From positions 8,314 to 72,313 of the forward strand of contig DATEMY010000358.1 of assembly GCA_035275345.1 (NCBI GenBank): DNA of 64,000 bases. Direction: 5' to 3'. The position numbers and the translations under genes were made by a program. Below are positions 563-35,589 of the stretch, piece after piece (position 1 is the first letter of the stretch; every line of letters begins with the position of its first letter). The DNA is from Blastocatellia bacterium (GTDB taxonomy: Bacteria > Acidobacteriota > Blastocatellia > RBC074). The notes under the pieces were generated by a model. The model was given only the letters and a program-made list of their open reading frames with translations, did no database searches and was not told the DNA's origin.

Positions 563-2901
<2,339 letters not shown>

Positions 2902-3086
2902 AGCTCCGCGATTATAGATGGAGCTTGTCTCTCGGCTTACGCGGCTTTCCGCCGCCGCGGAGACTTAGCGCGCGATGACCAGCGCGCCTGATCGAATGTT
3001 TTTCGCTCCTACGATGTCCGCGTGATCGAAATATCCGCATTCATCGCACAGGAACACATCTCTTCTTAAGGGAGAAGGTGAAGGAA

Positions 3087-3353
3087 ATGTGTCTGGCCGT
3101 TCCCGGAAAGATCGTCAGCATTGAGGGCGACGACCCGATATTGCGCGACGGAAAAGTGAATTTCGGCGGAGTAGTCAAGCGGGTCAATTTAAGCTACGTG
3201 CCAGAAGCGAAGATCGGCGATTACGTCGTCGTGCATGTCGGCTTCGCGCTCAGCATAGTTGACGAAGAAGAGGCCAAGCAGGTCTTCGAATACCTGAAAA
3301 CGATTGGCGAGTTGAGCGAGATCGAAGGCGAATCGAATTTGGAGCCTGTATGA
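3087..3353 (+). CDS. hypC: Hydrogenase assembly chaperone HypC
   Basis: Canonical N-terminus [10 protein letters not shown] with Cys2, about 88 aa, RBS-like GGAGAAGGTGAAGG upstream. ATGA overlap with hypD. Confidence 0.85.
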
Positions 3354-4483
3354 AATACATTGACGAATACCGCGACGCAAAAATGGCTGAAGAGTACGCG
3401 CATGCCATCGCCGCAGTCGCGACAAAGCCCTGGACGTTGATGGAGGTCTGTGGCGGCCAGACTCATACCATTGTCAAATTCGGCATTGACGAGCTGCTGC
3501 CTGACAAGATCACTTTGGTTCACGGCCCCGGCTGCCCGGTCTGCGTCACGCCGATCGAGCTGATTGACAAGGCCATCGAGATCGCGTCGCGACCCGATGT
3601 CATCTTCTGCTCGTTCGGCGATATGCTCCGCGTGCCGGGAACGCAGAAGGATTTATTTGTCGTGAAGGCCGGAGGCGGAGATGTGCGCATTGTTTATTCG
3701 CCGCTCGATTGCCTGAAGATTGCGCGCGAAAACTCAGGGAAACAGGTCGTCTTCTTCGCGGTCGGGTTTGAAACGACTGCGCCCGCCAACGCCATGGCCG
3801 TTTACCAGGCGCATCAGCATGGCCTCACGAATTTCTCCGTCCTGGTTTCCCACGTGCTCGTGCCTCCGGCGATGGAAGCGATCCTTTCGTCGCCGTCGAA
3901 CCGGGTGCGGGGATTCCTGGCGGCGGGCCACGTTTGCACAGTGATGGGTTACGCCGAATACGAGCCGATAGCGGCGAAGTACCGTGTCCCGATTGTCGTC
4001 ACCGGCTTTGAACCCCTGGACATATTGATGGGCGTGTTGATGTGTGTGAAGCAACTCGAAGAAGGCCGCGCAGAAGTGGAAAACCAGTACGCGCGATCAG
4101 TCCGACGCGAAGGCAATCGCTACGCTCAACAAATAATCAGTGAAGTCTTTCGCATCACGCCGCGCAACTGGCGCGGTATCGGCGCCATTCAGCAGAGCGG
4201 CCTGGGCTTGAGCGAGAAGTTCGCGAACTATGACGCCGAAACGCGATTCGGCGTCGCGGATTACGCCGCCGAGGAGCCGGCGGAATGCATCAGCGGATTG
4301 ATTCTGCAAGGCGTGAAGAAACCGAATGAATGTTCGGCGTTTGGCAAGCGATGCACGCCAGAATATCCGCTTGGCGCGCCGATGGTGTCGAACGAAGGCG
4401 CGTGCGCGGCTTATCACCGCTACCGCAAGATCCAGGCCGCTGTGAACATTGAGCGGAACGCGGCGCAGGCGAGGGAGGCTTGA
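3350..4483 (+). CDS. hypD: Hydrogenase maturation factor HypD
   Basis: HypD motifs CGG-x-TH, GPGCPVC, FxPxxVS; 377 aa. Confidence 0.9.
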
Positions 4484-4486
4484 CCC

Positions 4487-5542
4487 ATGAGCGTCCTGAA
4501 AGATTTCAACCAAATCTGCCCGATTCCGATTGGGCAATACCCTCAGGTGACGCTTGCCCACGGGGGAGGCGGCAGACTGATGCATCAGCTCGTCGAGCGG
4601 ATGTTCATGCCAGCGTTTTCGAACCCGTTGCTCAGCGCGCGGCACGACGGGGCGACGTTCAGCGTCAATGGGTCGAGGCTCGCCTTCACGACCGATTCTT
4701 ACGTGGTCAGCCCGCTCTTCTTTCCTGGCGGGAACATCGGCGCCCTGGCGGTCAACGGCACAGTCAACGACCTGGCGATGTGCGGCGCGCGGCCGCTCTA
4801 CCTGAGCGCTGGGTTCATCCTCGAAGAGGGATTGCCGATGGAGACGCTCTGGAGCGTCGTTCAGTCGATGCGTTGCGCAGCCGACGAGGCGCGCGTCCAG
4901 CTGGTCACCGGTGACACTAAGGTCGTGGACAAGGGCAAAGGCGACGGCATCTTCATCAACACCGCCGGAGTCGGCGTGGTCGAACACGATCTTTCCATTT
5001 CGCCTGCGAGCGTGCGGCCCGGCGACGCGGTTTTGCTGAGCGGCGACCTGGGCCGTCACGGCATAGCGATTATGGCAGAGCGCGAAGGGCTGGCGTTTGA
5101 GAGCGCGATTGAGAGCGATTGCGCGCCGCTCGGCGACCTGGTGATGAGGCTGATCGACGCGAAGATTGAGATTCTTTGCCTGCGCGATCTGACTCGCGGA
5201 GGGTTGGCGAGCGCGTTGGTGGAGATCGCCGAAGCGGCGAAGGTCCAGATCAGGATCGATGAAAACTCAATTCCGGTTCGCGAAGACGTGCGAGGCGCGT
5301 GTGAGATCCTGGGCTTCGACCCGCTCTACCTGGCGAACGAAGGAAGGTTCGTGGCGTTTATCGCCGCGCCAGACGCTGACCGCGCCCTGGACATTTTGAG
5401 ATCACATCCGTTGGGCGATGGCTCTTGCCTGATCGGAAAGGTTACGAATGACTCTCCGCCTGCAGTGGTAATGAAAAGCAGGATCGGCGCCACGCGCATT
5501 ATTGATATGTTCAGCGGCGAGCAACTGCCGCGCATCTGCTGA
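4487..5542 (+). CDS. hypE: Hydrogenase maturation factor HypE
   Basis: PurM-like fold, 351 aa, C-terminal PRIC motif ending the protein (thiocyanate-carrying Cys). Confidence 0.9.
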
Positions 5543-6858: not shown

Positions 6859-9800
6859 TTGCCGATGACCGCGAAAGCCAGGGAAATGGATATTGCGGCG
6901 CTCCGCGCGCGGCTCGCGGAGTCGCATGGCAAGGAGTATTGGCGCAGCCTGGAAGAACTGGCCGAGTCCGAAGCCTTCCAGGAATCGCTGCGGCGTGAAT
7001 TTCCGAACGGCGCCGAGGAATGGAACGGCGTAATTGACCGCCGCCATTTTCTGCGACTGATGGGCGCGTCGTTGGCGCTCGCGGGATTGACGGCCTGCAC
7101 GCGCCAGCCGGCCGAGACCATCGTGCCATATGTGTATCCGGCCGTAGATATCACGCCGGGCCGGCCACTCTATTTCGCGACGGCGATGCCGATGGGCGGC
7201 GCGGCCGAGGGATTGTTAGTCGAAAGCCACGAAGGGCGTCCGACCAAGATCGAGGGCAACCCGAACCACCCGGCCAGCCTTGGCGCGACTAGCCTGTTCG
7301 CTCAGGCCTCTGTGCTGACGCTCTACAACCCCGATCGCGCGCGCACCATCACCAACCTCGGAGAGATCCTCTCCTGGGACGCGTTCACCACTGATCTCCA
7401 GCGATCGCTCGCTGAAAAGCGCGCCGGCCAGGGCGCCGGATTGCGCATCCTGACCGGGAGCGTCTCTTCGCCAACACTCATCAATCAGATCAAAACGCTG
7501 GGCGCCGGATTACCGGCGGCGAAGTGGCATCAATACGAACCAGTCAATCAAGACAACGCGCAGGCCGGCGCCCGGATGGCGTTCGGCGAATCGGTCAATA
7601 CGATCTACCGCTTCGAGAATGCCGACGTGATTCTCTCGCTCGACGCCGATTTCCTTGCCTGCGGGCAGGCGAGCCTTCGTTACGCGCGCGAATTCGCTGG
7701 CCGTCGCCGCCTTCTCGACGGCGATCGAGAGATGAACCGGCTCTACGTTGTCGAGGGTTCGATGACTAACACGGGCGCGGTCGCCGACCACCGCTTTCCG
7801 CTGCGGCCGAGCGAAATCGAAAGCTTCGCGCGAGAGGTCGCCGCCAACCTTGGCATCCAGGCCGGAGGGCAGGCCGGAGGACGAGCCGGAGGGCGGCCGG
7901 GCGACGCGCAGACGAAATGGCGGAATTGGGCCGAGCCGATCGCGCTTGACCTTCAAAAGCGCCACGGCAGGAGCCTGGTCATCGCGGGCGATTCGCAGCC
8001 GCCCGCCGTTCACGCGCTCGCGCACGTCATGAATCAATCGCTCGGTAATGCCGGCGTCACGGTCGTCTACGTCGCGCCGGTCGAAGCCAATCAGGTTAAT
8101 CAGACACAATCGCTCGGCGAACTGGCGCGCGATATGGACGCCGGTCAAGTCGATCTGCTGGTTATCGTCGGCTGCAACCCGGTCTACGACGCGCCTGTCG
8201 ACCTGAAATTCGCCGAGCGCATGTCGAAGGTCGGGACGCGTATCCACCTCAGCCTGTTCCACGACGAGACCTCGGAACTTTGTCACTGGCACGTCCCAGA
8301 ATCGCACTACCTGGAGACGTGGAGCGACGCGAGCGCTTACGACGGCACGGTGACGATCATCCAGCCGCTGATCGCGCCGCTCTACGAAAGCAAATCGGCG
8401 CACGAACTGCTGGCGGCCCTGTCAGGGCGGCCTCAACAATCGGGCTACGAGATCGTGCGCGACTTTTGGATGGAACAGCGCGGAGCAAAGGCGCAGCCTG
8501 CGCAGACGCCGCCGCCGATACCGGACCGGGCGCAAAATGAACAGGAGGCGGCTCAGGTCATAACGCAACTCCAGGCGAGACCTCAACCGACGGCCTTCGA
8601 CCAATGGTGGCAGGATGTGTTGAGAACAGGCGTAGCGCCGGACACGGCGTTCCATCCGAAACCGGTTTCAGCGAAAACCGGCTGGCTGAATCAGAGCGCC
8701 GCGCCGACGGCATCCAATCCATCCAGCCAGTCTAATCCGTCTGGCGGTCAGGACTCGCTCGAAATCATTTTCCGCGCAGATCCGTCGATTTACGACGGGC
8801 GCTTCGCGCATAACGGCTGGCTGCAGGAACTGCCCAAGCCTCTCACCAAAATCGCCTGGGGCAACGCGGTCGAGATCAGCCCCACGACGGCGGAACGATA
8901 CGGCCTGAGTTATGAGCTTGCGTGGCGCGGCGGCGAGCACGGCCAGGCGCTGGTCGACATCGTCGAGCTACAATACCTGGGGCGCAAACTGCTCGCGCCA
9001 GTCTGGATCACGCCCGGCCATGCCGACGGCTGCGCGACGGTCCATCTGGGCTACGGGCGTGCGCGAGGCGGCGGCGTAGGCTCCGGCGTCGGTTTCAACG
9101 CCTACGCGATCCGCACCTCCGACGCGCAGTGGTTCGGACAGGGTTTGACGATCCGCAAGACGGGCCAGCGCCAGCCCGTGGCCACGACACAGCTTCACTA
9201 CACAATGCAAGGGCGCGCTCTGGCGCGCTCCGCCACGCTCGACGAGTTCCGTCATCGTCCTAACTTCGCGCGCGAGGAAGACCCGCCGCCGGACAAATCG
9301 CTCTATCCAGAATGGCCGTACAACAGCTACTCGTGGGGCATGACGATCGATCTGAACGCCTGCGTCGGCTGCAACGCCTGCGTCGTCGCCTGCCAGGCCG
9401 AAAACAACATCCCGGTCGTCGGCGAGCAAGAGGTGATGCACGGGCGAGAGATGCATTGGCTGCGCATTGACCGCTATTACTCGGGCGCGCTCGACCGTCC
9501 CGAAACATACTTTCAACCTGTCCCCTGCATGCAATGCGAGAAGGCGCCGTGCGAACTGGTCTGCCCTGTAGGCGCGACATTGCACAGCTCCGAGGGCTTG
9601 AACGATCAGGTCTACAACCGCTGCGTCGGCACGCGCTACTGCTCGAACAACTGCCCGTACAAGGTCCGCCGCTTCAACTTTTTCCTCTACCCGGATTGGA
9701 ACACGCCGCAACTGAAGATGCAGCGCAACCCCGACGTGAGCGTGCGCTCGCGCGGCGTGATGGAGAAATGCACTTACTGCGTGCAGCGCATCCAGGAAGC

Positions 9801-10065
9801 GAAGATCACCGCCGAAAAGGAAGAGCGCAAGGTGCGAGACGGCGAGATCAAGACGGCCTGCCAGCAAGCCTGTCCAGCAGAGGCGATCGTCTTCGGAGAC
9901 ATCAACGACAAGTCTAGCCGCGTGGCGAGGCTCAAACAAGAGCCGCGCAATTACGCCATGCTCGCCGAACTCAATACGCGCCCGCGCACAACCTATCTGG
10001 CGGCTGTGCGCAACCCAAATCCGGAGATCGAATCAGAGGAGGCCGGACCCGATGGCCGTGGATGA
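6859..10065 (+). CDS. actB: Alternative complex III subunit ActB: molybdopterin-oxidoreductase-like domain fused to a 4Fe-4S ferredoxin-like domain, Tat signal
   Basis: Twin-arginine signal RRHFLRLMGASLALAGLTAC; C-terminal Cys clusters CVGCNACVVAC, CMQCEKAPC, CVGTRYC, CTYCVQR; 1068 aa. Confidence 0.85.
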   Translation: MPMTAKAREMDIAALRARLAESHGKEYWRSLEELAESEAFQESLRREFPNGAEEWNGVIDRRHFLRLMGASLALAGLTACTRQPAETIVPYVYPAVDITPGRPLYFATAMPMGGAAEGLLVESHEGRPTKIEGNPNHPASLGATSLFAQASVLTLYNPDRARTITNLGEILSWDAFTTDLQRSLAEKRAGQGAGLRILTGSVSSPTLINQIKTLGAGLPAAKWHQYEPVNQDNAQAGARMAFGESVNTIYRFENADVILSLDADFLACGQASLRYAREFAGRRRLLDGDREMNRLYVVEGSMTNTGAVADHRFPLRPSEIESFAREVAANLGIQAGGQAGGRAGGRPGDAQTKWRNWAEPIALDLQKRHGRSLVIAGDSQPPAVHALAHVMNQSLGNAGVTVVYVAPVEANQVNQTQSLGELARDMDAGQVDLLVIVGCNPVYDAPVDLKFAERMSKVGTRIHLSLFHDETSELCHWHVPESHYLETWSDASAYDGTVTIIQPLIAPLYESKSAHELLAALSGRPQQSGYEIVRDFWMEQRGAKAQPAQTPPPIPDRAQNEQEAAQVITQLQARPQPTAFDQWWQDVLRTGVAPDTAFHPKPVSAKTGWLNQSAAPTASNPSSQSNPSGGQDSLEIIFRADPSIYDGRFAHNGWLQELPKPLTKIAWGNAVEISPTTAERYGLSYELAWRGGEHGQALVDIVELQYLGRKLLAPVWITPGHADGCATVHLGYGRARGGGVGSGVGFNAYAIRTSDAQWFGQGLTIRKTGQRQPVATTQLHYTMQGRALARSATLDEFRHRPNFAREEDPPPDKSLYPEWPYNSYSWGMTIDLNACVGCNACVVACQAENNIPVVGEQEVMHGREMHWLRIDRYYSGALDRPETYFQPVPCMQCEKAPCELVCPVGATLHSSEGLNDQVYNRCVGTRYCSNNCPYKVRRFNFFLYPDWNTPQLKMQRNPDVSVRSRGVMEKCTYCVQRIQEAKITAEKEERKVRDGEIKTACQQACPAEAIVFGDINDKSSRVARLKQEPRNYAMLAELNTRPRTTYLAAVRNPNPEIESEEAGPDGRG

Positions 10066-11458
10066 GCTGCCGCCCAAAGTCGTCAACCGCGAGCCGGACA
10101 TTCCGCCGGTGATCGGCCCCGGCCACAGCTTCGCGTCGATCACCGACAAAATCAGCTCGATCGTCTTATCGCGCCGCACGCCGCCCGGATGGGTCGCGGG
10201 CTTCGCTCTCGCCTTCCTGCTGGTGATGATGCTCGGCTTCGCCGTAGGTTATCTGCTGATCAGAGGCGTGGGCATCTGGGGCATCGACATCCCCGTGGCG
10301 TGGGGATTCGCCATCGTCAACTTCGTCTGGTGGATCGGGATCGGGCACGCTGGCACGCTGATCTCGGCGATCCTGCTCCTGCTTAACCAGAAATGGCGCA
10401 CCTCGATCAACCGTTTCGCCGAGGCGATGACGCTTTTCGCCGTGGCCTGCGCGGGAATGTTCCCGCTGCTGCACTTGGGACGCCCGTGGCTGTTCTATTG
10501 GCTGTTTCCCTATCCGAACATAATGAACGTGCAGCCGCAATTCCGGAGCCCGCTGGTCTGGGACGTCTTCGCGGTCTCGACCTATTTCACCGTCTCACTG
10601 GTCTTCTGGTTCGTAGGGCTGGTCCCCGACCTGGCGACGCTGCGCGATCGTGCGCGATCTCACGCGGGGCGGATCGTATACGGGATGCTGGCAATGGGGT
10701 GGCGCGGTTCGGCGCGGCATTGGAAGCGTTACGAGGTCGCTTACCTGCTGCTGGCCGGACTGGCCACGCCGCTGGTGGTTTCTGTTCACACGGTGGTCAG
10801 CTTCGACTTCACGATCGCGATACTGCCCGGATGGCATTCGACCATCTTTCCGCCCTACTTCGTCGCGGGCGCGATCTTTTCGGGCTTCGCGATGGTGCTG
10901 ACGATCGCCGTCCCGCTGCGCAGGTTCTACGGCCTGGAAGATTTCATCACGCTGCGCCACCTGGACAACTGCGGCAAGGTGATGCTGGCCACGGGGCTGA
11001 TCGTCGCCTACGGCTACATGTGCGAGATTTTTCTCTCCTGGTACAGCAAGGACAAGTTCGAGTGGTTTATGACGCGGAACCGGATATTCGGGCCGTACTG
11101 GATGGTCTTCTGGAGCGTGATGGCGCTCAACGTCGCCGTTCCGCAACTGCTCTGGTCTCGGCGCGTCCGGCGCAGCGCGGCGGCGCTGTTTCTGGTCTCG
11201 TTGGCGATCAACATCGGGATGTGGCTAGAGCGATACATGATCGTGATCACCAGTTTGAGCCGCGATTTTATGCCCTCGGCGTGGGGGCAGTACGCCGCGA
11301 CGGTGTGGGATTACGCGGTTTTCGCGGGAACCATCGGCTTCTTCGTCGCGATGATGTTTCTGTTCTTGCGGTTCCTGCCGGCGATCTCCATCGCGGAGAT
11401 GCGCACGTTGTTGCCGCAGGCCGAAGTCAAAGAAGAAGAAGAGGAGGTACCGGCGTGA
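10052..11458 (+). CDS. actC: Alternative complex III subunit ActC (NrfD/PsrC-like polytopic quinol-interacting membrane subunit)
   Basis: About 10 predicted TM helices with an NrfD-like pattern; follows actB with a 14-nt overlap. Confidence 0.8.
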   Translation: MAVDELPPKVVNREPDIPPVIGPGHSFASITDKISSIVLSRRTPPGWVAGFALAFLLVMMLGFAVGYLLIRGVGIWGIDIPVAWGFAIVNFVWWIGIGHAGTLISAILLLLNQKWRTSINRFAEAMTLFAVACAGMFPLLHLGRPWLFYWLFPYPNIMNVQPQFRSPLVWDVFAVSTYFTVSLVFWFVGLVPDLATLRDRARSHAGRIVYGMLAMGWRGSARHWKRYEVAYLLLAGLATPLVVSVHTVVSFDFTIAILPGWHSTIFPPYFVAGAIFSGFAMVLTIAVPLRRFYGLEDFITLRHLDNCGKVMLATGLIVAYGYMCEIFLSWYSKDKFEWFMTRNRIFGPYWMVFWSVMALNVAVPQLLWSRRVRRSAAALFLVSLAINIGMWLERYMIVITSLSRDFMPSAWGQYAATVWDYAVFAGTIGFFVAMMFLFLRFLPAISIAEMRTLLPQAEVKEEEEEVPA

Positions 11459-11997
11459 GGAGGCGCAAGCCGCGTTATTACGGCCTGATGGCCGAATTCG
11501 ACAGCCCGACGGCGGTCGTCGACGCGACCCGGCGCGCTTACGCGGAAGGCTACCGCCGAATGGACGCTTACACGCCGTTCCCGGTCGAAGGCCTGGCCGA
11601 GGAGATGCGCTTCCACCACACGCGGGTGCCGTTGATCGTGCTGCTGGGAGGCCTGGCCGGATGCCTGGGCGGGTATTTTTTGCAGTACTGGATCGCGGCG
11701 ATCTACTGGCCGCTGAACATCGCCGGCCGGCCGCTCAACAGTTGGCCTATGTTCATTCCGGTGACCTTTGAATTGACGGTGCTGGCGGCGGCGCTCTCGG
11801 CGTTGTTAGGAATGTTGGCGCTGAACGGATTGCCGCACCCCTATCACCCGGTCTTCAACGTCCCGCGCTTCGCGCTGGCGTCGCAGGATCGCTTCTTCCT
11901 GTGCATCGAGGCGAGCGATCCGCGATTCGACCGCGCGGCGACGCGGGATTTTCTGGAGAGTCTGTCGCCACGGGAGGTGAGCGATGTCGAGAGTTAA
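11455..11997 (+). CDS. actD: Alternative complex III subunit ActD
   Basis: GTG at 11455 preceded by GAGGAGG; GTGA overlap with the actC stop. Sequence YGLMAEFDSPTAVVDATRRAYAEGYRRMDAYTPFPVEGL is typical of ActD (DUF3341) with two TM helices. Confidence 0.6.
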   Translation: MRRRKPRYYGLMAEFDSPTAVVDATRRAYAEGYRRMDAYTPFPVEGLAEEMRFHHTRVPLIVLLGGLAGCLGGYFLQYWIAAIYWPLNIAGRPLNSWPMFIPVTFELTVLAAALSALLGMLALNGLPHPYHPVFNVPRFALASQDRFFLCIEASDPRFDRAATRDFLESLSPREVSDVES

Positions 11998-12030
11998 TCA
12001 AAGACACAGAGGCGCAGCGACACAGAGACG

Positions 12031-12200
12031 AAAAGGGGGAGACAAGGGGACAAGGGGACAAGGGGACAAGGAGACAAGGGGACAAAGTGGAAAGGACAGA
12101 AGGAAAATGAAGGAAGGGGAACGGGAGGACATATGTTTTTCTCCTCGTCCCCTTTTCTCCCTGTCCCATTGTCTCCCTGTCCCCTTGTCCCCTTGTCTCC
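12031..12200. repeat. Inverted array of imperfect octamer repeats: (GGGGACAA)x6 on the left arm and (TTGTCCCC)x6 on the right arm, separated by about 45 nt. Predicted long RNA/DNA hairpin inside the ACIII operon between actD and actE
   Basis: Read directly: left arm 12036-12098 is GGGGAGACAAGGGGACAAGGGGACAAGGGGACAAGGAGACAAGGGGACAAAGTGG. Right arm 12150-12200 is CCCTTTTCTCCCTGTCCCATTGTCTCCCTGTCCCCTTGTCCCCTTGTCTCC. Confidence 0.6.
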
Positions 12201-12208
12201 GCGTCTCC

Positions 12209-12760
12209 GTGGCGATAACGCTGGTCTTGTTTGCTGTCGCGTGCCGCCAGGACATGCAGGACCAGCCGAAGTATAAGCCGCTGGCGCCGAGCCGATTCTT
12301 CAGCGACGGGAAATCGGCGCGACAGCTCGTTGAAGGCGTCGTGCCGTTCCAGCCCGGAGGCCAGGCGATTTCGCCGATGACCGACGAGTCGAAGGCCACG
12401 GCGCTACCGTTCCCGCTCACGCCGCAGGCGCTGGATCGCGGCCAGGAGCGGTTCAACATCTACTGCGCGCCGTGTCACGGGCGGTTGGGTTACGGCGACG
12501 GAATGGTCGTGCGGCGCGGATTTCTCGCGCCGCCGTCTTACCACACTGACCGCTTGCGCCGGGAGCCGGTCGGGCATTTTTACGACGTGATGACGAACGG
12601 CTTCGGCGCGATGCCAAGTTACGCCGACAAAGTCGCGCCGCGCGACCGTTGGGCCGTCGCCGCTTACATACGCGCGCTGCAACTGAGCCAGCGCGCGACG
12701 ATCAACGACGCGCCGCCGGAATATCGCGACAAGCTTCAATCGGGAGGGCAAAAGCAGTGA
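12209..12760 (+). CDS. actE: Alternative complex III subunit ActE, monoheme cytochrome c lipoprotein; start uncertain
   Basis: Single CAPCHG heme motif. Lipobox-like LFAVAC followed by RQDMQDQPKYKP. The track ORF begins at 11984, but its first 75 codons are encoded by the octamer repeat array (GDKGTRGQGDK low-complexity peptides). In-frame GTG at 12209 is proposed. Confidence 0.55.
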   Translation: MAITLVLFAVACRQDMQDQPKYKPLAPSRFFSDGKSARQLVEGVVPFQPGGQAISPMTDESKATALPFPLTPQALDRGQERFNIYCAPCHGRLGYGDGMVVRRGFLAPPSYHTDRLRREPVGHFYDVMTNGFGAMPSYADKVAPRDRWAVAAYIRALQLSQRATINDAPPEYRDKLQSGGQKQ

Positions 12761-13962
12761 TTGACGCGCAACAGCTTTACATCGCGCCGACTGCCGCAGG
12801 ACGCATACAACAACGCGCGCTGATCGTCGGCGCCATGGGGCTTATCCTGTGCGTCGTGGGGGCGATCTTTCGTCCCGCCCTGTTCCTGCAATCGTACCTG
12901 TTCGCCTATCTCTTCACACTCGGCCTGGCGCTCGGGAGCATGGCGATTTTGATGTTGCAGTACCTGACGGGCGGCGATTGGGGCGTGGTGGTCCGGCGCG
13001 TCCTCGAAGCGGCGATGCGGACTCTGCCCTGGCTTGCGGCGGGCTTTCTGCCCGTCGCGCTGGGCGTGCGCGAGCTCTACGTGTGGGCGCGCCCAGCGCA
13101 GGCGGCCGCTTTGGGGCTGGATTATCGAACCGAATATTTGAACGTCCCGTTCTTCATCGCCCGCGCCGTCCTCTATTTCGCCGTCTGGCTGGCGATGGCC
13201 CGTCTGCTCGACCGATGGTCGCGGGAGCAAGATCGCGGCGCGGCGCTGGGATGGTTGAAACGACTACGGCGATTGAGCGGACCGGGGCTGGTGATTTATG
13301 CCGTGACGATCACCTTCGCGGCCTACGACTGGCTGATGTCGCTCAACCCGGAATGGTACTCGACGATCTTCGGGCTGCTCATTATCGCCGGACAGGCGCT
13401 CTCTGCTGTGGCGTTCGCGATCCTCGTCGCGGCGCTGCTCTCGACGCGCGAGCCGATGGCGGTGGTTCTCCAGCCGAGACACTTCCACGACCTCGGAAAG
13501 TTGATGCTCGCGTTCGTTATGGTCTGGGCCTATCTGTCCTTCTCTCAGCTTCTGATCGTCTGGTCGGGGAATCTGCCGCAGGAGATCCCGTTCTACCTTC
13601 CGCGAATGCAGAGCAGTTGGCGATGGGTAGGCATCCTCTTGATCGTCTTGCATTTCGCGCTGCCGTTCGCGCTGTTGCTCTCGCGCGATCTGAAGCGGCG
13701 CGCCGGATCGCTGGCGGCGCTCGCGGGCTTGGTGATCGTGATGCGAGTGACGGACCTATTCTGGCTGGTCGCCCCGGAGTTCCGCCGCCAGGGACTGGCG
13801 ATTGACTGGTTTGATCCGGTCACGGTCGTCGGGCTTTGTGGCCTGTGGCTGGCGCTGTTCACCCGGGAATTGAGAACGAGGCCGATGCTGCCGCTGCGCG
13901 ACCCGCATCTGGTCGACGCGCTGAGCGCGGGAGAACAGTATTCGGTTAATCGCCGGGAGTGA
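12757..13962 (+). CDS. actF: Alternative complex III subunit ActF (second NrfD-like membrane subunit)
   Basis: Polytopic membrane protein paralogous in pattern to ActC. GTG at 12757 with GGGAGGG RBS; GTGA overlap with the actE stop. Confidence 0.7.
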   Translation: MIDAQQLYIAPTAAGRIQQRALIVGAMGLILCVVGAIFRPALFLQSYLFAYLFTLGLALGSMAILMLQYLTGGDWGVVVRRVLEAAMRTLPWLAAGFLPVALGVRELYVWARPAQAAALGLDYRTEYLNVPFFIARAVLYFAVWLAMARLLDRWSREQDRGAALGWLKRLRRLSGPGLVIYAVTITFAAYDWLMSLNPEWYSTIFGLLIIAGQALSAVAFAILVAALLSTREPMAVVLQPRHFHDLGKLMLAFVMVWAYLSFSQLLIVWSGNLPQEIPFYLPRMQSSWRWVGILLIVLHFALPFALLLSRDLKRRAGSLAALAGLVIVMRVTDLFWLVAPEFRRQGLAIDWFDPVTVVGLCGLWLALFTRELRTRPMLPLRDPHLVDALSAGEQYSVNRRE

Positions 13963-14474: not shown

Positions 14475-14478
<4 letters not shown>

Positions 14479-16280
14479 GACCGCCGACTATAAAAACGAT
14501 CATCTATCTGGCGCTACTCGCCGCCTCGGCCTCGGCCCAGCCTTCGCGTCCCGTCAAGCCGAGCGACATCGGTTTCGATCAACGGCTGGACGAAGCAGTC
14601 CCGCTCGGCCTCACGTTCCGCGACGAGAGCGGAAAGTCGGTTGAACTCGGCGATTACTTCAATGGCAAACCCGTCATCCTCGCGCTCGTCTATTACCAGT
14701 GCCCGATGCTCTGCAACCAGGTGTTGAACGGGTTGGCCGGTGGCTTGAAGGCGCTCCCCTTCGATGCGGGCAGAGAGTTCGAGGTCGTCGTCGTCAGCAT
14801 CAACCCGCGCGAGACTTCGGCTTTGGCCGCCGCGAAGAAGGAGAGCTACGCGCGCGATTACTGGCGCGCGGGCGCGGCTTCGGGCTGGCATTTCCTGACC
14901 GGCGACCCGAAGCCGATTGACTCGTTGTCGAAGGCGGTCGGGTTCCGCTTTGCCTACGACCCGATGCTCAACCAGTACGCGCACGCCTCGGGCGTTATCG
15001 TTCTGACCCCCAAGGGCAGAGTCGCGCGTTACTTTTACGGCGTCGAGTACGCGCCGCGCGACCTGCGATTCGGATTGATCGAGGCGGCCGAGGAGAGGAT
15101 CGGTACGCCGGTGGATCAGGTCCTGCTGCTCTGTTACCAGTACGATCCGAAGACCGGAAAATACAGCGCGGCGGTCATGAAGTCGCTGCGGCTGGGCGGC
15201 GGCGTGACGGTGATCGGTGTTGCCGCACTATTGTTAGCATTGAGCCGCAAGGCGAAGAGAGAAAGGCGAAGCGCCAAGCCCAAGAATTACTGCTTACTCC
15301 CGTTCGGCGCGCTGTTCATTCCGTTCCTGCCCGAAAACGCGTCGAGCTTCGCCGGCGACGTCGACGCGCTCTTTTTCACGCTGGTCGGCCTCTCGGTCTT
15401 TTTCGCCGTGCTGATCGCCGGGCTGGAAATCTATTTCGCGATGAAATACCGCCGCCGCTCACCTGGAGAGATTCCGCCCAAGACCGCCACGTCGTTCGCG
15501 CTCGAAGCGGCCTGGATCGGCATCCCGTTCCTGATCTGCCTGGTGATTTTCGTCTGGGGCGCGAGCCTTTATTACAGGATCTACAGCGCGCCGAAAGAAA
15601 CAATGGAGATTTACGTCACGGCCAAGCAATGGATGTGGCGATTCCAGCACGCCGGCGGCCAGCGTGAGATCAACGAACTGCATGTGCCGCTCGGGAGCCG
15701 CGTCAAGCTGACGATGGCGAGCGAGGACGTCATCCACAGCTTCTTCGTGCCTGCGTTCCGCGTCAAGGCCGACGTGCTGCCAGGCCAGGGACGCTACCGG
15801 GTCGTCTGGTTCGAGCCGACCAAGCCCGGACGATGGCGCCTCTTCTGCGCCGAATATTGCGGGATGAACCATTCGGGGATGATCGGCTGGGTCGAGGTGA
15901 TGCGGCCCCAGGAGTTTCAGGCCTGGCTCGGCGCCGGCGGCGCCGAAGGCTCGATGGCTTCGTCGGGGCAGAAACTGTTTCAGCAACTGCCTTGCGCCAC
16001 GTGCCACAAAACCGACGGGGCGGGGCGCTGTCCAGTGCTCGAAGGGCTGTTTGGCAAACAGGTCCAATTGCAGGACGGGCGAACCGTGACCGTCGACGAG
16101 GACTACGTCCGCGAATCGATCCTCGATCCGAATGCGAAGGTCGCGGCGGGCTACGAGCCGATCATGCCAAACTTCACTGGACTGCTCAGCGAAGAGCAGT
16201 TGGCGCAAATTATCGCTTACATCAAATCGATCGGAGGGCCGCAACAGGGCGCGGCGACCAGGCCGGAAGGACAGAAATAA
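14475..16280 (+). CDS. coxB: Fusion ORF: SCO1/SenC copper chaperone domain + cytochrome c oxidase subunit II (CuA) + C-terminal cytochrome c domain (caa3-type)
   Basis: N-terminal signal peptide, SCO motif CPMLC with downstream His in a thioredoxin-like domain (residues about 40-230). Then TM helices and the CuA site [13 protein letters not shown]...[13 protein letters not shown]. Then CATCHK heme c site. No in-frame stop between domains; internal ATG at 15177 ([14 protein letters not shown]). Confidence 0.7.
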
Positions 16281-19373: not shown

Positions 19374-20429
19374 ATGGCGACAACAGCATCGACATTGAGC
19401 GAGCGCCCGCCGGACGTCAAAGAGGCGCACATCATCTGGCTCACGGCCGGTCTGGGTTGCGACGGCGATACGATCTCGGTGACCAACGCCGAGCAGCCCA
19501 GCATCGAGGACGTGATTATGGGGGCGATTCCCGGGCTACCGAAAGCGCATCTGCACAACCCGGTGCTGGCCAAGGAAGTCGGCGACGAATTCATGGATTA
19601 CTTCTACCGCGCCGAAAGGGGAGAACTTGACCCTTTCATCTTCGTCGTCGAGGGGTCAATTCCGAACGAGACGATCAAGCGCGAGGGCTATTGGGCGGCG
19701 CAAGGAACCGACCCGGAGACGGGGCAGCCGATCACGACCTGCGAGTGGATAGACCGCCTGGCGCCGAAGGCCTGGGCGGTGGTGGCCGCTGGAACTTGCG
19801 CCACTTATGGCGGCATTCACGCGATGGAAGGCAATCCGACAGGCTGCATGGGCCTGGCCGATTATCTTGGTTGGGACTTTCGTTCAATCGCCGATATCCC
19901 GATCGTCAACGTGCCAGGATGCCCGGTGCAGCCGGACAACTTTATGGAGACCTTGCTTTACCTGCTCTATCAGGCGGCCGGACTGTCGCCGATGATCCCG
20001 CTGGACGACAAGCTGCGCCCGACATGGCTCTTCGGCAAAACGGTGCATGAAGGCTGCGACCGGGCGGGTTATTACGAGCAGAGCGATTTCGCCCATGAGT
20101 ACGGCTCGCCCAAGTGCCTGGTCAAGGTCGGCTGCTGGGGGCCGGTGGTCAACTGCAACGTGACCAAACGCGGCTGGATGCGCGGCGTCGGCGGCTGCCC
20201 CAACGTCGGCGGCATCTGCATCGCCTGCACCATGCCCGGTTTCCCGGATAAATTCATGCCGTTTATGGACGAACCGCCAGGCTCGGCTCTCTCGACGGGC
20301 TTGGTTGGCGTCTACGGGGGAATGATCCGCGCGCTACGTGGCATCACCAACAACACCGTCAACAAGGAACCGAGTTGGCGGCATCCGGGGCCGCGCCTCA
20401 CCACCGGCTATCGGCCGCGAACATATTAA
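19374..20429 (+). CDS. hhyS: [NiFe]-hydrogenase small subunit, group 1h (high-affinity, Tat-less)
   Basis: ATG at 19374 with AGGAGAGG RBS. N-terminus MATTASTLSERPPDVKEAHIIWLTAGLGCDGDT starts directly at the conserved Fe-S domain, with no RRxFxK Tat signal. 351 aa; Cys-rich C-terminal region. Confidence 0.85.
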   Translation: MATTASTLSERPPDVKEAHIIWLTAGLGCDGDTISVTNAEQPSIEDVIMGAIPGLPKAHLHNPVLAKEVGDEFMDYFYRAERGELDPFIFVVEGSIPNETIKREGYWAAQGTDPETGQPITTCEWIDRLAPKAWAVVAAGTCATYGGIHAMEGNPTGCMGLADYLGWDFRSIADIPIVNVPGCPVQPDNFMETLLYLLYQAAGLSPMIPLDDKLRPTWLFGKTVHEGCDRAGYYEQSDFAHEYGSPKCLVKVGCWGPVVNCNVTKRGWMRGVGGCPNVGGICIACTMPGFPDKFMPFMDEPPGSALSTGLVGVYGGMIRALRGITNNTVNKEPSWRHPGPRLTTGYRPRTY

Positions 20430-20434
20430 TCGAC

Positions 20435-20505
20435 GCCGCGGGCGGTAGCGAGAGTGGTTCCCTGAGCCGATCATCGAGGAAGTCACTCTCGCTACCGCCC
20501 GCGGC
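20435..20505 (+). repeat. Perfect 22-bp inverted repeat (GCCGCGGGCGGTAGCGAGAGTG ... CACTCTCGCTACCGCCCGCGGC) with a 27-nt loop in the hhyS-hhyL intergenic region
   Basis: Read directly from the sequence; sits between the hhyS stop (20429) and the hhyL start (20528). Confidence 0.5.
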
Positions 20506-20527
20506 GCCCACCTGGAAAAGAAGGATT

Positions 20528-24568: not shown

Positions 24569-25500
24569 TGAACCTCAATCTCGTGAAGAAAATCGCCGAC
24601 GCCGTGCTCTATGAAGGTTATCTGCTCTATCCGTACCGTCCCTCGGCGATCAAGAACCGGCGGCGTTTCAACTTCGGCGTAGTTCATCCGCGGGATTACG
24701 GCCTGGCGCACGACGAGCTTTTCTGTATGCAGACCGAGTGTCTGGCGACGGGTAATCGGCGTATGGCGCTGGACGCGCGCGTGCGGTTCCTGCATATGAC
24801 GGCGCGCGAAGGCTGGCAGGAAGCGGTCGAGCGTGAGGTCGATGCGCCTGACCTCAATGTGGCTGATCTTCTCGCTTCGCCGCGACAAGTGAATTTCGCT
24901 TTTCCATTGAAGCAGGAGGAGAAGGGTGCGGGTGAAAGACCCGAGCAGGAAACCATCAGCGGCAGTATTGATATCAACGCTCATCAGCTTGCGGAGCAGG
25001 TATTCAAAATCACGGTTCGCATCCTGAACCTGACACCGCTGGCGGAAGCGCCGAGCGTGAGCCGCGATGAAGCGTTAACGCGCTCGATGGTTTCAACCCA
25101 CGCCATTCTGGCCGCGCGCGGCGGCGAGTTTGTTTCCCTGCTCGATCCGGCTGAGCCGTGGCGTGAAATGGCCGGCTCGTGCAGCAACATCGGGACGTAC
25201 CCAGTGCTGGTCGGCGCCGAAGGAGAGCGCGACGCGATGCTCTCATCGCCCATCATCCTTTACGACTACCCGCAGATCGCGCCGGAAAGCGCAGGCGATC
25301 TCTTCGACGGGACGGAAATTGATGAAATGCTCACGCTGCGCATCCTGACGCTGACGGACGAGGAGAAACGCGAGATGCGCGCTCGAGACGAACGAGCGCG
25401 GCGGATTCTGGAGCGGACTGAATCGCTGCCCGCCGAGCAATTGATGAAGCTGCACGGCGCGGCGCGCTGTTTGCGACAGGTCGAGGACGGCGCCAGATGA
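24568..25500 (+). CDS. Conserved hypothetical protein, hydrogenase cluster-associated
   Basis: ATGA overlap with the preceding ORF; 310 aa; N-terminus MNLNLVKKIADAVLYEGYLLYPYRPS. Confidence 0.45.
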   Translation: MNLNLVKKIADAVLYEGYLLYPYRPSAIKNRRRFNFGVVHPRDYGLAHDELFCMQTECLATGNRRMALDARVRFLHMTAREGWQEAVEREVDAPDLNVADLLASPRQVNFAFPLKQEEKGAGERPEQETISGSIDINAHQLAEQVFKITVRILNLTPLAEAPSVSRDEALTRSMVSTHAILAARGGEFVSLLDPAEPWREMAGSCSNIGTYPVLVGAEGERDAMLSSPIILYDYPQIAPESAGDLFDGTEIDEMLTLRILTLTDEEKREMRARDERARRILERTESLPAEQLMKLHGAARCLRQVEDGAR

Positions 25501-25841
25501 ACAAATGGGAATGGCAATCGCTCGAAGAACGAACGCCGCTGGAATCGGCCAACGCCGGCGGAATCGAAATCAGGCCGGGCGACCACGTCCGGCTGAGACC
25601 GCGAGCGGGCGGCGACATCTTTGACCTTGCTCTGGCCGGGCGCGCCGCCACGATTGAAGCTATCGAGCAGGATTACGAAGGCCGGATTCATTTTGCGGTG
25701 CTTGTGGACGACGACCCGGGCAAAGACCTGGGAGTCTTGAGGCAGCCCGGCCATCGCTTCTTCTTTGCGCCGGAAGAGATCGAACCGGCGCCGCCAGATG
25801 GAATTGACAAGAAGCCTTTACGTCGCGCTGGACCGCTCTGA
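25497..25841 (+). CDS. Small hypothetical protein (114 aa), hydrogenase cluster-associated
   Basis: ATGA overlap with the preceding ORF; last ORF before the palindromic element. Confidence 0.4.
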   Translation: MNKWEWQSLEERTPLESANAGGIEIRPGDHVRLRPRAGGDIFDLALAGRAATIEAIEQDYEGRIHFAVLVDDDPGKDLGVLRQPGHRFFFAPEEIEPAPPDGIDKKPLRRAGPL

Positions 25842-25864
25842 AACAATGGAAAACGGGAGCGGGA

Positions 25865-25943
25865 GTAGCGCAACCTGCCTAGGTTGCGCTGCTTAACAAC
25901 CCGACTTTTGCCGGAGCAGCGCAACCTAGGCAGGTTGCGCTAC
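25865..25943. repeat. 79-bp twin-hairpin palindrome: two 28-bp arms (GTAGCGCAACCTGCCTAGGTTGCGCTGC and its exact reverse complement) separated by 23 nt; each arm is itself a 12-bp stem with a 4-nt loop
   Basis: Read directly. Located between the last hydrogenase-associated ORF (stop 25841) and hupD (start 25961). Possible bidirectional terminator, RNA processing site or protein-binding site. Confidence 0.5.
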
Positions 25944-25960
25944 TTCTTCTGAGGGGCGCG

Positions 25961-26488
25961 ATGACATCGCCGAAAATTCTGATCGCCGGAATCGGGAATA
26001 TATTCCTGGCCGATGACGGCTTTGGTTGCGCGGTGGCCGGGCGGTTGGCGCGGCGTCCATTGCCCGATGGCGTGCGAGTGGTTGATTTCGGCGTTCGCGG
26101 CTTTGATCTGGCTTACGCATTGATGGACGGTTACGACGTGACAATCCTGATTGACGCCGTTACGCGAGGCGCCGAGCCGGGCGCGCTTTACGTCATCGAG
26201 CCGGACTTGAACGAACTGAACGCGCCGGACGCGCAGGCGATAATGGTCGAAGCTCATGCGATGAATCCGATGCGAGCGCTCGCTCTGGTCAAGTCAATGA
26301 ACGGCGAATTGAAGCGGATTCTGCTGGTGGGTTGCGAGCCGGCGACGCTCGGCCCGGAGGAAGGCCGGATGGGCCTCAGTGAAACGGTGGAAGCGGCGGT
26401 GGATGGAGCGGTCGAGATGGTCGAATCGCTCGTCGCGGAAATACTCGGCGATCAGCGCAAGACGGGCGCTGGCGCGAACCATTATTGA
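25961..26488 (+). CDS. hupD: Hydrogenase maturation endopeptidase (HupD/HyaD/HybD family)
   Basis: N-terminal ILIAGIGNIFLADDGFG motif and overall size (175 aa) typical of [NiFe] large-subunit C-terminal processing proteases. Confidence 0.8.
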   Translation: MTSPKILIAGIGNIFLADDGFGCAVAGRLARRPLPDGVRVVDFGVRGFDLAYALMDGYDVTILIDAVTRGAEPGALYVIEPDLNELNAPDAQAIMVEAHAMNPMRALALVKSMNGELKRILLVGCEPATLGPEEGRMGLSETVEAAVDGAVEMVESLVAEILGDQRKTGAGANHY

Positions 26489-32042: not shown

Positions 32043-33182
32043 ATGAAACACATCGACGAATATCGCGCGGGCGAGATCGCCGGACGGCTGGCCGAGGAAA
32101 TCGCCCGGCTCTCGGCCCGGATAAGCGATCCGCCGCTCAAGCTGATGGAGGTTTGTGGCGGCCACACTCACACGATCTTCAAATACGGCATTGAAGATCT
32201 GCTGCCGCCGAACATCCAGATGATTCACGGGCCGGGTTGTCCGGTGTGCGTCATTCCGCTGGGCCGCGTGGATGACGCGCTGGCCATCGCCAAACGCGAA
32301 GGCGTCATTTTCACCACCTTCGGCGATATGATGCGCGTGCCCGGATCAAAGACGAGCCTGCTGCAGGCGAAGGCCGAAGGCGCCGACGTACGGATTGTCT
32401 ATTCGCCGCTCGACGCATTGAAGCTGGCGAAGCGGAACCCTGATCGTGATGTGGTCTTTCTGGCGCTCGGTTTTGAAACCACCGCGCCTTCGACCGCGCT
32501 GACCGTGGTGGCGGCGGCGAAAGAGGGCGTCGGGAATTTCAGCGTCTTTTGCAACCACATCATGATTGTGCCGGCGTTGAAGGCGCTGCTCGATTCGCCC
32601 GACCTGAGGCTGGACGGCTTCGTCGGGCCTGGACATGTCAGTACGGTCATCGGCGCGCTCGTTTACGAGTTCGTGCCGCGCGAGTATGGCAAGCCGCTGG
32701 TCGTTTCGGGCTTCGAGCCGCTCGACGTTCTGCAATCGGTGGCGATGATTATCAAACAGATTGTCGAATCCCGAGCCGAGGTCGAAAACCAATACGCGCG
32801 CTGTGTCCCGCGCGACGGCAACGCGAACGCGCTGGCGGCGATCCGCGAGGTCTTCGAAGTCCGCGATTATTTCGAGTGGCGCGGCCTGGGATCGATCGCG
32901 CGCAGCGGGTTGAAGTTGAGAAAGGAATACAGCCGGTTCGACGCCGAGTCGCGCTTCGCCGCGCCGGGATTGCGGATCGCCGATCCGAAGGCTTGCCAGT
33001 GCGGCGAGATTTTGAAAGGCGTAAAGAAACCGTGGGAGTGTAAGGTCTTCGGCACGGCTTGCACGCCGGAAACACCGATCGGCTCCTGCATGGTCTCGTC
33101 CGAAGGCGCATGCGCGGCCTATTACAATTTCGGACGGTTGTCGAAGGCGGCCGAGCGGTCGGCGGCGGTAGCCAGGCCGTGA
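32043..33182 (+). CDS. hypD: HypD (second copy)
   Basis: CGGHTHT, GPGCPVC and other HypD motifs; 379 aa. Confidence 0.9.
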   Translation: MKHIDEYRAGEIAGRLAEEIARLSARISDPPLKLMEVCGGHTHTIFKYGIEDLLPPNIQMIHGPGCPVCVIPLGRVDDALAIAKREGVIFTTFGDMMRVPGSKTSLLQAKAEGADVRIVYSPLDALKLAKRNPDRDVVFLALGFETTAPSTALTVVAAAKEGVGNFSVFCNHIMIVPALKALLDSPDLRLDGFVGPGHVSTVIGALVYEFVPREYGKPLVVSGFEPLDVLQSVAMIIKQIVESRAEVENQYARCVPRDGNANALAAIREVFEVRDYFEWRGLGSIARSGLKLRKEYSRFDAESRFAAPGLRIADPKACQCGEILKGVKKPWECKVFGTACTPETPIGSCMVSSEGACAAYYNFGRLSKAAERSAAVARP

Positions 33183-33251
33183 AGGAGGGCGTAGGCGGCG
33201 CATACACGCTCTTCCTCGCGGTCGGGCTGCCGACACATCGAGCAAACAAAC

Positions 33252-34337
33252 ATGGAATTCACCACTTCACCACTCTTCGAACGCGTCGAACGCGCGCGGC
33301 GAAGAAAACCGAGAGTAATAGATGAATTCATCACGCTCGCGCACGGCAGCGGCGGCAAGGCTATGCATGAGCTGGTTGAAGGGCTCTTTCTCGAATACTT
33401 CCGCAACCCACTGCTCGAAAAGTTGGAAGATCAGGCTGTGTTTGAAATTGCGGGCGATTGCCGCGCGTCGCGCCTCGCTTTTACAACGGATTCATACGTC
33501 GTCACGCCGCTCTTCTTTCCTGGCGGGGATATCGGCCGCCTGGCCGTTTGCGGCGCGGTCAACGACCTGGCGATGAGCGGCGCGCGTCCGCTCTACCTCT
33601 CAGCAGGTTTCATCATCGAGGAAGGGTTTCCGATCGCCGACCTCAAACGCGTTCTGCAATCAATGCGCGACGCGGCGGAAGAAGCCGGCGCGCGGATCGT
33701 CACCGGCGACACCAAGGTTGTGCAACGAGGAGGCGCGGACAAGCTATTCATCAACACGGCGGGAATAGGCGTGATTGAACACGACGCTCGTATCTCGGCC
33801 GCGAACGTCCGCCCGGGCGACAAAATCATTCTGAGCGGCGCGATGGGCGATCACGGCGCGACGATTATGATCGCGCGCGGCGAGTTGGGACTGGAGACCA
33901 ACCTCTGCAGCGATGTCGCGCCGCTCTGGTCGCTGGTCGAAACGATGCTCGACGCGCCGACCGGGATTCACGCGATGCGCGACCCGACGCGCGGCGGCGT
34001 AGCGACGACGCTGAACGAGATCGCGCTCGCTTCCGAAGTCTGCCTGATAATTGACGAGCGGGCTTTGCCGGTGCGCGATGAAGTCAAAGGCGCATGCGAA
34101 ATCCTGGGACTCGACCCGCTTTACATCGGCAATGAAGGCAAGCTGGTGGCCATGGCAGCGGCTGAGGCCGCAGATCGGATCGTCGAGCGGATGCGCCAAC
34201 ACCCTCTGGGCCGCGAGGCGCGAGTCATCGGCGAGGCGCAGGCCGAACCGATGGGCATCGTCGTTCTGAAAACTGGCTTCGGCGGGACGCGGATCGTTGA
34301 TATGCTCGCCGGCGAGCAACTGCCGCGCATATGCTGA
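33252..34337 (+). CDS. hypE: HypE (second copy)
   Basis: PurM-like; ends in PRIC; 361 aa. Confidence 0.9.
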   Translation: MEFTTSPLFERVERARRRKPRVIDEFITLAHGSGGKAMHELVEGLFLEYFRNPLLEKLEDQAVFEIAGDCRASRLAFTTDSYVVTPLFFPGGDIGRLAVCGAVNDLAMSGARPLYLSAGFIIEEGFPIADLKRVLQSMRDAAEEAGARIVTGDTKVVQRGGADKLFINTAGIGVIEHDARISAANVRPGDKIILSGAMGDHGATIMIARGELGLETNLCSDVAPLWSLVETMLDAPTGIHAMRDPTRGGVATTLNEIALASEVCLIIDERALPVRDEVKGACEILGLDPLYIGNEGKLVAMAAAEAADRIVERMRQHPLGREARVIGEAQAEPMGIVVLKTGFGGTRIVDMLAGEQLPRIC

Positions 34338-35476: not shown

Positions 35477-35589
35477 TTTTACTCCTCTTATGATGAACCA
35501 AGGGGCAGCAGTTTATGATGAACCAAGGGGCAGCAGTCTGAATCTGTAGTAACAATAATGCCAACGCCTGTGAAGCGCGAAAAGCAGCT

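Follow-up and report, generated by a model that had tools for sequence, protein, structure and literature searches.

The 64,000-nt window analyzed here (positions 8,314 to 72,313 of contig DATEMY010000358.1 from a Blastocatellia bacterium of the Acidobacteriota) contains the operon for the respiratory alternative complex III (ACIII). Between the stop codon of actD and the sequence for mature ActE, a monoheme cytochrome c, this operon carries a hairpin-forming array of octamers that spans roughly 200 bases. We propose that the hairpin is a fast-evolving palindromic tandem repeat of a generic class that is read in frame within the cleavable n-region of the ActE signal peptide. From the sequence comparisons presented below, the probability of this interpretation is estimated to be about 0.68. 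The hairpin is not established as a locus-specific regulator and is probably a generic palindromic repeat that is tolerated in the n-region. Based on the comparative data, actE most likely starts at ATG 11984, and the GTG start selected by NCBI for a homologue is in our view incorrect.

The coordinates of the element and its neighbors are listed in Table 1. The core of the purine arm was found to consist of six GGRGACAA units in an 8-nt register (GGAGACAA, three copies of GGGGACAA, GGAGACAA, and GGGGACAA), flanked on both sides by degenerate octamers (12003-12037 and 12086-12107). The nine YYGTCYCC units of the pyrimidine arm are, in order, TTTTCTCC, TCGTCCCC, TTTTCTCC, CTGTCCCA, TTGTCTCC, CTGTCCCC, TTGTCCCC, TTGTCTCC, and GCGTCTCC. 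Tandem Repeats Finder (TRF) identified a period of 8 with 5.6 copies at 12041-12085 (94% matches) and a period of 8/16 at 12140-12208. In the best inverted-repeat fit the arms are 70 nt long, 80% complementary, and 31 nt apart; an alternative fit has 87-nt arms at 72%. The first-pass annotation of this DNA had described two facing arrays of about six units each, separated by about 45 nt, in a stem of about 50 bp. The two facing arrays were confirmed by direct reading of the sequence, TRF, a repeat search, and RNA folding, with the dimensions corrected to six and nine units, a 51-nt spacer between the well-formed arrays, and 70-nt arms. The minimum free energy (MFE) of the plus-strand RNA was determined to be -120.8 kcal/mol (z = -9.1), and 0 of 200 dinucleotide shuffles folded as well. 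The corresponding values for the minus-strand RNA are -122.1 kcal/mol and z = -10.3, with no shuffle folding as well.

The hairpin is the largest inverted repeat in the window and the sole copy there. A two-unit pattern (with at most 2 mismatches) gave eight matches in the 64 kb, all of them within the element, where 0.01 was expected. Scans of the whole window with Rfam and for tRNA and tmRNA gave no match. An array of clustered regularly interspaced short palindromic repeats (CRISPR) was rejected, as it had been previously, because the 8-nt units are contiguous and have no spacers, whereas CRISPR repeats of ~24-48 nt alternate with unique spacers of similar length. The low-complexity peptides of the GDKGTRGQGDK type encoded by the array, and the LFAVAC lipobox downstream of it, are as originally described. 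Since the 5' arm contains no T and the 3' arm no A, neither arm can hold a stop codon.

The position of the actE start was addressed with a set of 79 actD-actE junctions, composed of 68 metagenome loci with both genes, 10 loci from close relatives, and the window; individual loci are cited by L numbers. An insert was defined as at least 90 nt between the actD stop and the lipobox Cys codon. Values between 31 and 448 nt were measured for this distance, and 40 of the 79 junctions (51%) are inserted. The gap was found to equal 1 modulo 3 in 37 of the 39 uninserted loci and in 38 of the 40 inserted loci (75/79 overall). The loci are phylogenetically related and the 40 inserts are not 40 independent events; therefore, distinct insert lengths were counted, and 28 of 30 are in frame (binomial p = 8.7e-12 against an expectation of one third). 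All four out-of-frame loci start actE at a differently overlapping codon. The two inserted exceptions among them, L142 and L177, begin actE in a different register of overlap with the actD stop (ATGA and TGATG) and are open throughout. Over the 40 inserts there are 0 in-frame stops in the actE frame, whereas the two remaining sense frames contain 33 and 70; 40/40 inserts are free of stops in the actE frame, compared with 19/40 and 8/40 in the others.

Because frame and stops are conserved in this manner across relatives, the array is probably translated within the n-region of the ActE signal peptide. The earlier proposals that the array lies between actD and actE, and that it masks a real start at GTG 12209, are disfavored by these results and by the GGGAGG sequence ahead of ATG 11984. 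A GAGGTG or GGAGGTG sequence is found at the equivalent place in L210 and L211. Among homologues with at least 80% identity that include the cysteine, 42 of 48 have at least 36 residues before it, and nearly all of these start with MS[RGS]. Their leaders have many lengths, from 37 to 154 residues. Most close homologues are open reading frames (ORFs) of 220-249 residues that open with MSR(V/I)(N/D)QSH from the equivalent overlapping ATG, with extensions encoded by different repeats. Translated from the overlapping ATG, the uninserted relative L201 has the leader MSSIDKSGVSVAIILISFAVGC (MSSIDKSG...), which is an ordinary one for a lipoprotein. The net charge of the leader is positive in 37 of the 40 inserted loci. 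The ActE leader in the window has the layout of a signal peptide for signal peptidase II (SPII), with a charged n-region, an h-region, a lipobox, and Cys+1 (...CLRVSVAITLVLFAVAC).

The actE starts in public records are inconsistent. P0001, the NCBI annotation of the best-matching homologue (183 residues; 99% identity, 96% query coverage), is called from the internal GTG, whereas the genes from L210 (start at 1501, 168 residues) and L211 (start at 1501, 163 residues) are called from a Met after the lipobox Cys, yet both loci are open and in frame from the overlapping ATG. Gene callers that start after the Cys remove the lipid-anchor signal from the predicted ActE.

Table 1. Features of the act operon and of the hairpin element in the window
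Feature	Position	Strand	Basis or remark
ActB-like Fe-S protein	6859-10065		Pfam
ActC (NrfD family)	10052-11458		Pfam
actD, ACIII subunit D	11455-11997	+	Pfam PF11821 ActD, E = 2e-67; GTG start; stop TAA 11995-11997
Shine-Dalgarno-like GGGAGG	11972-11977	+	Within the actD coding sequence, 6 nt upstream of ATG 11984
Proposed full actE ORF, 258-residue precursor	11984-12760	+	ATG 11984 overlaps the actD stop by 14 nt; stop 12758-12760
Outer degenerate octamers of the purine arm	12003-12037	+	GACACAGA GGCGCAGC GACACAGA GACGAAAA GGGGG; direct repeat in 8-nt register
Core purine arm, six GGRGACAA units	12038-12085	+	Sequence read, TRF, pattern and repeat search
Degenerate inner units and apical region with small apical stem-loop	12086-12136	+	MFE structures; in-frame ATG at 12107
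Pyrimidine arm, nine YYGTCYCC units, complementary to the purine arm	12137-12208	+	Encodes FSPRPLFSLSHCLPVPLSPCLRVS
h-region and lipobox of the ActE signal peptide, VSVAITLVLFAVA-C	12203-12244	+	Cys codon TGC 12242-12244
GTG 12209, start in the first-pass annotation and in the NCBI annotation of a homologue	12209-12211	+	Probably encodes an internal Val
Mature ActE, monoheme cytochrome c of ACIII	12242-12757	+	phmmer against PDB; Pfam PF13442
actF, 401 residues	12757-13962	+	GTG start in GTGA overlap with the actE stop; gene of 399-404 residues at the same position in relatives

Several points weigh against our interpretation. The arms are free of stops by composition, and part of the open-frame signal is therefore automatic; the weight of this evidence is carried by the modulo-3 result and by the loop regions. 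The loci are related by descent, and the 40 inserts are not independent. The NCBI pipeline selected GTG 12209. A leader of 86 residues is far above the usual length for a lipoprotein (~23 residues in Rhodothermus marinus ActE), and the ribosome must unwind a stem of approximately -120 kcal/mol. Finally, inserts are present in 51% of loci and in 42/48 close relatives although long palindromes are expected to be unstable, and the hairpin may for this reason be selected for a function.

The inserts are specific to one site and change rapidly. Extra sequence was found at only 1 of 72 actE-actF junctions and 1 of 59 actC-actD junctions of the same loci; hairpin repeats thus collect specifically in the ActE leader. 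In close relatives, the flanking genes are 86-94% (actD) and 81-92% (actE) identical in DNA sequence to those of the window, and the inserts only 44-68% (global identity). The 5' and 3' arm units are GGAGACAA and TTGTCTCC in L202, and GGGGCGAC and GTCGCCCC in L205, L122, and L210. Units of the GAGACGGA type are found in L203 and L207, the unit GGAACACGCG in L209, and heptamers in L208 (AAAGGCA/TGCCTTT) and L211 (AGAAGAC/GTCTTCT). The semi-conserved 5' flank of the insert corresponds to the outer octamers of the window, and a CACAGAG-type flank is also present in L203, L205, L122, L206, and L210. The encoded insert peptides differ completely among close relatives. Nine of the 10 insert-bearing relatives have fold z-scores of -5 to -12, and the short remnant in L206 has z = -2.3. 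In all 10 the 5' half is purine-rich (purine fraction 0.61-0.85) and the 3' half is pyrimidine-rich (purine fraction 0.23-0.35). The unit sequence turns over rapidly, while stem, polarity, and frame are retained.

More distant acidobacterial loci carry other repeats at the same site. These include repetitive extragenic palindromic (REP)-like palindromes (GTGGCACAGGCATTCCTGCC..., and CCGCTCCCT..CGGTCGCGG) and octamer arrays of CACAGAGN. Palindromes of the classic REP-like kind were found at the actE site in L132, L133, L128, L140, L143, and L189, and L124 has a heptamer palindrome of opposite polarity. In L121 (1262-1726) the ActE leader holds a 465-nt composite insert (-271 kcal/mol) that is still in frame and consists of nested copies of an unrelated repeat of ~60 nt (GGGGGATGGTTAAAG...) inside an outer palindrome of the GGAACAC type. 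In L211 (1334-1489) and L208 (1514-1669) the purine arm encodes a K/R-rich n-region, and the pyrimidine arm encodes the sole hydrophobic h-region before the Cys (FCLLSSVFCLLLFCLLLSGC and LPFAFCLLPFAFLVSAC, respectively). To judge from these translations, the repeat in these two loci appears to have become the signal peptide itself.

The persistence of the stem raises the possibility, which we regard as unlikely though worth stating, that the translated hairpin is also a selected cis-regulatory RNA. A stem of ~70 bp would form when actD-coupled translation is inefficient, and it could direct cleavage of the RNase III type, slow the ribosome, or tune the output and membrane targeting of ActE, with the sequence free to drift. 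The insertion of 40/79 loci and of 42/48 close relatives despite complete turnover of the units is consistent with such a function, as are the complementarity of the arms in every lineage and the near absence of inserts at the other operon junctions. In addition, the purine units carry the Shine-Dalgarno-like sequence AAGGAG and the pyrimidine units the anti-Shine-Dalgarno-like sequence CUCCUU. However, slippage and template switching explain the complementarity of tandem arrays equally well, the insert is absent or lost in some relatives (L201, and L206 with its remnant), and the unrelated families of REP-like palindromes at the same site fit tolerance as well as they fit function.

Species-representative genomes were scanned for (GGRGACAA)x3, and at least 120 loci were obtained; all locus counts given here were taken from the matches listed. 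Of these, 76/120 are cyanobacterial. The others are from Planctomycetota, Chloroflexota, Acidobacteriota, Bacteroidota, and other groups, often with several loci per metagenome-assembled genome (MAG); pairs of loci from MAGs with two or three palindromes are L029/L081, L040/L097, and L074/L104. The cyanobacterial arrays are solo, with an inverted partner in 1 of the 76. Among the non-cyanobacterial loci, 13 elements are paired with a complementary array no more than 300 nt away. The first-pass annotation had called for a search for further copies and had stated that many identical copies scattered in the genome would indicate a generic repeat. The element is single-copy in the window, but the same octamer palindromes are found at unrelated loci in the genomes of other Blastocatellia, Acidobacteria, Planctomycetota, and Chloroflexota, which argues for a generic repeat rather than a locus-specific regulator.

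All 13 of the partnered non-cyanobacterial GGRGACAA/TTGTCYCC palindromes, and that of the window, have the purine arm on the 5' side, and none is reversed. Examples are L029 (5559-5677), L049 (2502-2588), L097 (5769-5949), and L038 (5045-5180). Because the arm order of a palindrome is identical when read from either strand, this layout is a true polarity. The logic of signal peptides cannot explain it, because intergenic copies show the polarity as well. One such copy, L038 in a different Blastocatellia MAG, is bounded by convergent cyclase and kdsB genes, and irregular stretches outside the unit pattern are common to its 3' arm and the 3' arm of the window. The sharing of irregular arm sequence with an unrelated locus argues for a dispersed family. 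On the other hand, the empty site in L201 already contains the outermost 3' unit of the palindrome, GCGTCTCCGTGGCG, of which all units in actE are variants, and the presence of this unit in L201 fits local growth by slippage and hairpin-templated copying. From these sequences the element could have originated either by insertion of a dispersed element or by growth in situ from an inverted copy of the native GCGTCTCCGTGGCG.

Among the (GGRGACAA)x3 matches listed, there is no close relative of the window, except for similarity at the level of genes to a Gemmataceae MAG of the Planctomycetota (L074). Window positions 1474-4980 and 32145-33773 have 65-73% nucleotide similarity to a single L074 contig. 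This contig also bears a GGAGACAA palindrome (L074 4413-4557), though the homologues of the window ActE are from Blastocatellia. A full-text search with two-unit strings found no description of the octamer arrays, and the matches to single units were from unrelated eukaryotic and viral papers.

It is conceivable, at odds that we consider clearly poor, that the purine-5'/pyrimidine-3' octamer palindromes are an undescribed class of elements that spans several phyla and has a strict polarity and a directional origin, and that in Acidobacteria they were captured at the actD-actE junction as a translated RNA element under structural selection and became the signal peptide itself in some lineages. 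The palindromes would then be generated directionally, for example, by extension of a G-strand or by fold-back priming at 3' ends.

[quoted passage not shown] By structure, the hairpins of REP, REPIN, and MITE sequences, all of them short, dispersed, and hairpin-forming, and the cyanobacterial arrays of short tandemly repeated repetitive (STRR) sequences and heptamers, are the nearest known systems. REP sequences are extragenic by definition and have a fixed sequence of 20-40 nt, and a MITE is delimited by defined terminal inverted repeats and flanked by a target-site duplication. In contrast to REP and REPIN sequences, the element described here is not extragenic, as it lies inside an ORF under selection for frame, and it has no fixed sequence. 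Its arms are inverted repeats, and the whole arm is a tandem array. No target-site duplication was evident when filled sites were read against the empty site in L201; no formal search was run.

The unit of STRR1, CCCCAGT, shares the GGGGAC core. The STRR sequences have been used for the fingerprinting of Nostoc (PMC5088731), and heptamer arrays occur near start codons in Nostoc (bioRxiv 10.1101/2022.06.06.494920). These are dispersed tandem arrays of a short unit, like the 7-8-nt unit here, but the cyanobacterial arrays are heptameric and in a single orientation, whereas the element in the window is an inverted pair of octamer arrays inside a reading frame of an acidobacterium. By behavior, the nearest system is that of the Rickettsia palindromic elements (RPEs), which are palindromes of ~100-150 bp that lie in frame in genes and are translated into the gene product, at sites that its function tolerates (PMC10969869). 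Both are palindromic, in frame, and free of stops within a coding gene. However, RPEs form defined families with a conserved encoded peptide in Rickettsia, whereas here the tandem units of 7-8 nt differ between close relatives in an acidobacterium. The ActE insert also differs in that it is in a leader that is probably cleaved off, and is not kept in the mature protein.

A third alternative, which is improbable in view of the junction data, is that the hairpin is intergenic and non-coding, that actE starts at GTG 12209, and that the element uncouples the expression of actABCD from that of actEF-cox. This Val/Met is the annotated start of P0001 and of three further database entries, the h-region and lipobox are directly downstream, and the hairpin is very stable. 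However, non-coding inserts should be in frame in one third of cases, whereas 28 of the 30 distinct lengths are in frame, and the stops number 0 in frame against 33 and 70. The leader from GTG 12209, MAITLVLFAVAC..., lacks any charged residue in its n-region, in contrast to the MSSIDKSG... read from the overlapping ATG of the uninserted L201. This GTG has no purine-rich stretch, and thus no Shine-Dalgarno sequence, upstream of it, and it is base-paired at the foot of the outer stem. For the separation of actABCD from actEF-cox, also suggested previously, no evidence was found; the scans described below flagged no terminator- or promoter-like site at the element, and every junction in the operon overlaps.

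It is very improbable that the G-rich arm acts as a G-quadruplex in DNA or mRNA. The check for quadruplex potential proposed earlier did identify a canonical motif on the sense strand (12035-12065); further motifs lie antisense in the opposite arm, and for the G-rich arm in isolation a quadruplex of -24.3 kcal/mol is predicted. However, the hairpin is favored in context, with the MFE unchanged when quadruplexes are allowed, and the motif is absent from most of the orthologous inserts (e.g., L202 with GGAGACAA, L203, L207, L208, and L211), which keep the hairpin. Equally remote is an intrinsic terminator or attenuator within the operon; this is suggested by the large GC-containing hairpin, by the purine-5'/pyrimidine-3' layout, which recalls bidirectional terminators, and by the position of the related copy in L038 between convergent genes, but there is no T-run after the stem (beyond 12223), the region is under selection for reading frame, and the essential downstream genes are in overlapping register. 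A terminator scan of 11000-13200 gave 3 small sites against 2.1 expected, none of which is the large stem; the scan detects loops of 3-8 nt and at most 20 pairs, and with arms 31 nt apart its silence carries little weight. A promoter scan of the same region gave no promoter-like site.

In the mechanism that we favor, the translated and tolerated repeat, translation of actE would begin at ATG 11984 and would be coupled to that of actD through the 14-nt overlap, in line with the remaining operon junctions. The ribosome would read through both arms and produce an 86-residue presequence with a K/R/G/D/E/Q-rich stretch, an S/P/L/C-rich stretch, the native h-region VSVAITLVLFAVA, and the lipobox Cys. 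All residues upstream of Cys87 would be removed during maturation of the lipoprotein, and mature ActE would be unaltered. The leader may be the one place in this tightly overlapped operon where extra DNA can persist if the frame is kept. It would tolerate palindromes because the purine arms encode K/R/G/D/E/Q and the pyrimidine arms encode L/F/S/P/C/V, which is the order of an n-region followed by an h-region. The complementarity of the arms is probably maintained by 8-nt slippage and hairpin-templated correction, by selection for the RNA stem, or by both.

The identification of the operon is based on Pfam and PDB matches to ActB (Fe-S), ActC (NrfD-like), ActD, ActE (monoheme c), and ActF, which are followed by oxidase genes. 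The actC/actD and actE/actF junctions are GTGA overlaps, and start and stop codons overlap at all operon junctions in the window. ActD is 180 residues long in relatives. Mature ActE matches 8k9e_E (2e-48) and 6f0k_E (1e-34) in a phmmer search of the PDB, and also 6lod_E and 6btm_E ("Alternative Complex III subunit E"). The first residue of mature ActE aligns with Cys26 of 8k9e_E, and the closest ActE homologues are annotated as Blastocatellia (Acidobacteriota). In R. marinus ActE the lipobox extends from Leu21 to Cys24, and a lipid anchor has been proposed (PMC5928083). The signal peptide in the window is similar to that of R. marinus in its positive n-region, h-region, lipobox, and Cys+1, but the leader is 86 residues long (37-154 in relatives) owing to the repeat insert.

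Other features of the window were noted. Within actB, a 12/23-nt tandem repeat at 7858-7906 (CAGGCCGGAGGG) encodes the low-complexity sequence GIQAGGQAGGRAGGRPGD. The oxidase subunit II gene on the 3' side of the act genes (14475-16280) is a fusion in which a COX2 domain is flanked by SCO1/SenC (N-terminal) and cytochrome c (C-terminal) domains. At 25864-25944 there is a perfect hairpin of another kind (AGTAGCGCAACCTGCCTAGGTTGCGCTGCT...), with 30-nt arms that are 100% complementary and a 21-nt loop. It lies between the ORFs at 25497-25841 and 25961-26488, and its final bases are shared with a minus-strand ORF (25940-26257). A second hairpin with 30-nt arms (20434-20506, 90% complementary, 13-nt loop) is found just after the stop of an ORF that ends at 20429 and upstream of the likely next start. 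A perfect tandem duplication of 25 nt x 2 (TTATGATGAACCAAGGGGCAGCAGT, TRF score of 100) is located at 35488-35537.

The start of actE is probably miscalled in public records, and the conservation of frame across relatives provides a simple rule for its correction. We regard this correction of the annotation as sound, and there is a modest chance that a regulatory mechanism is hidden in the element. About half of the sampled acidobacterial actE genes carry an insert that evolves much faster than its flanks, with frame and stem kept. The n-region of a cleavable signal peptide can be a "safe harbour" for hairpin repeats in an operon without intergenic space. The actE loci offer a natural system for the evolution of long palindromes under the constraint of a reading frame, and a test case for whether a translated hairpin tunes the expression or processing of a respiratory complex. 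If the more doubtful proposal of a directional, multi-phylum class were true, repeat DNA would be a source of new export signals and of a translation-coupled control point for the assembly of ACIII.

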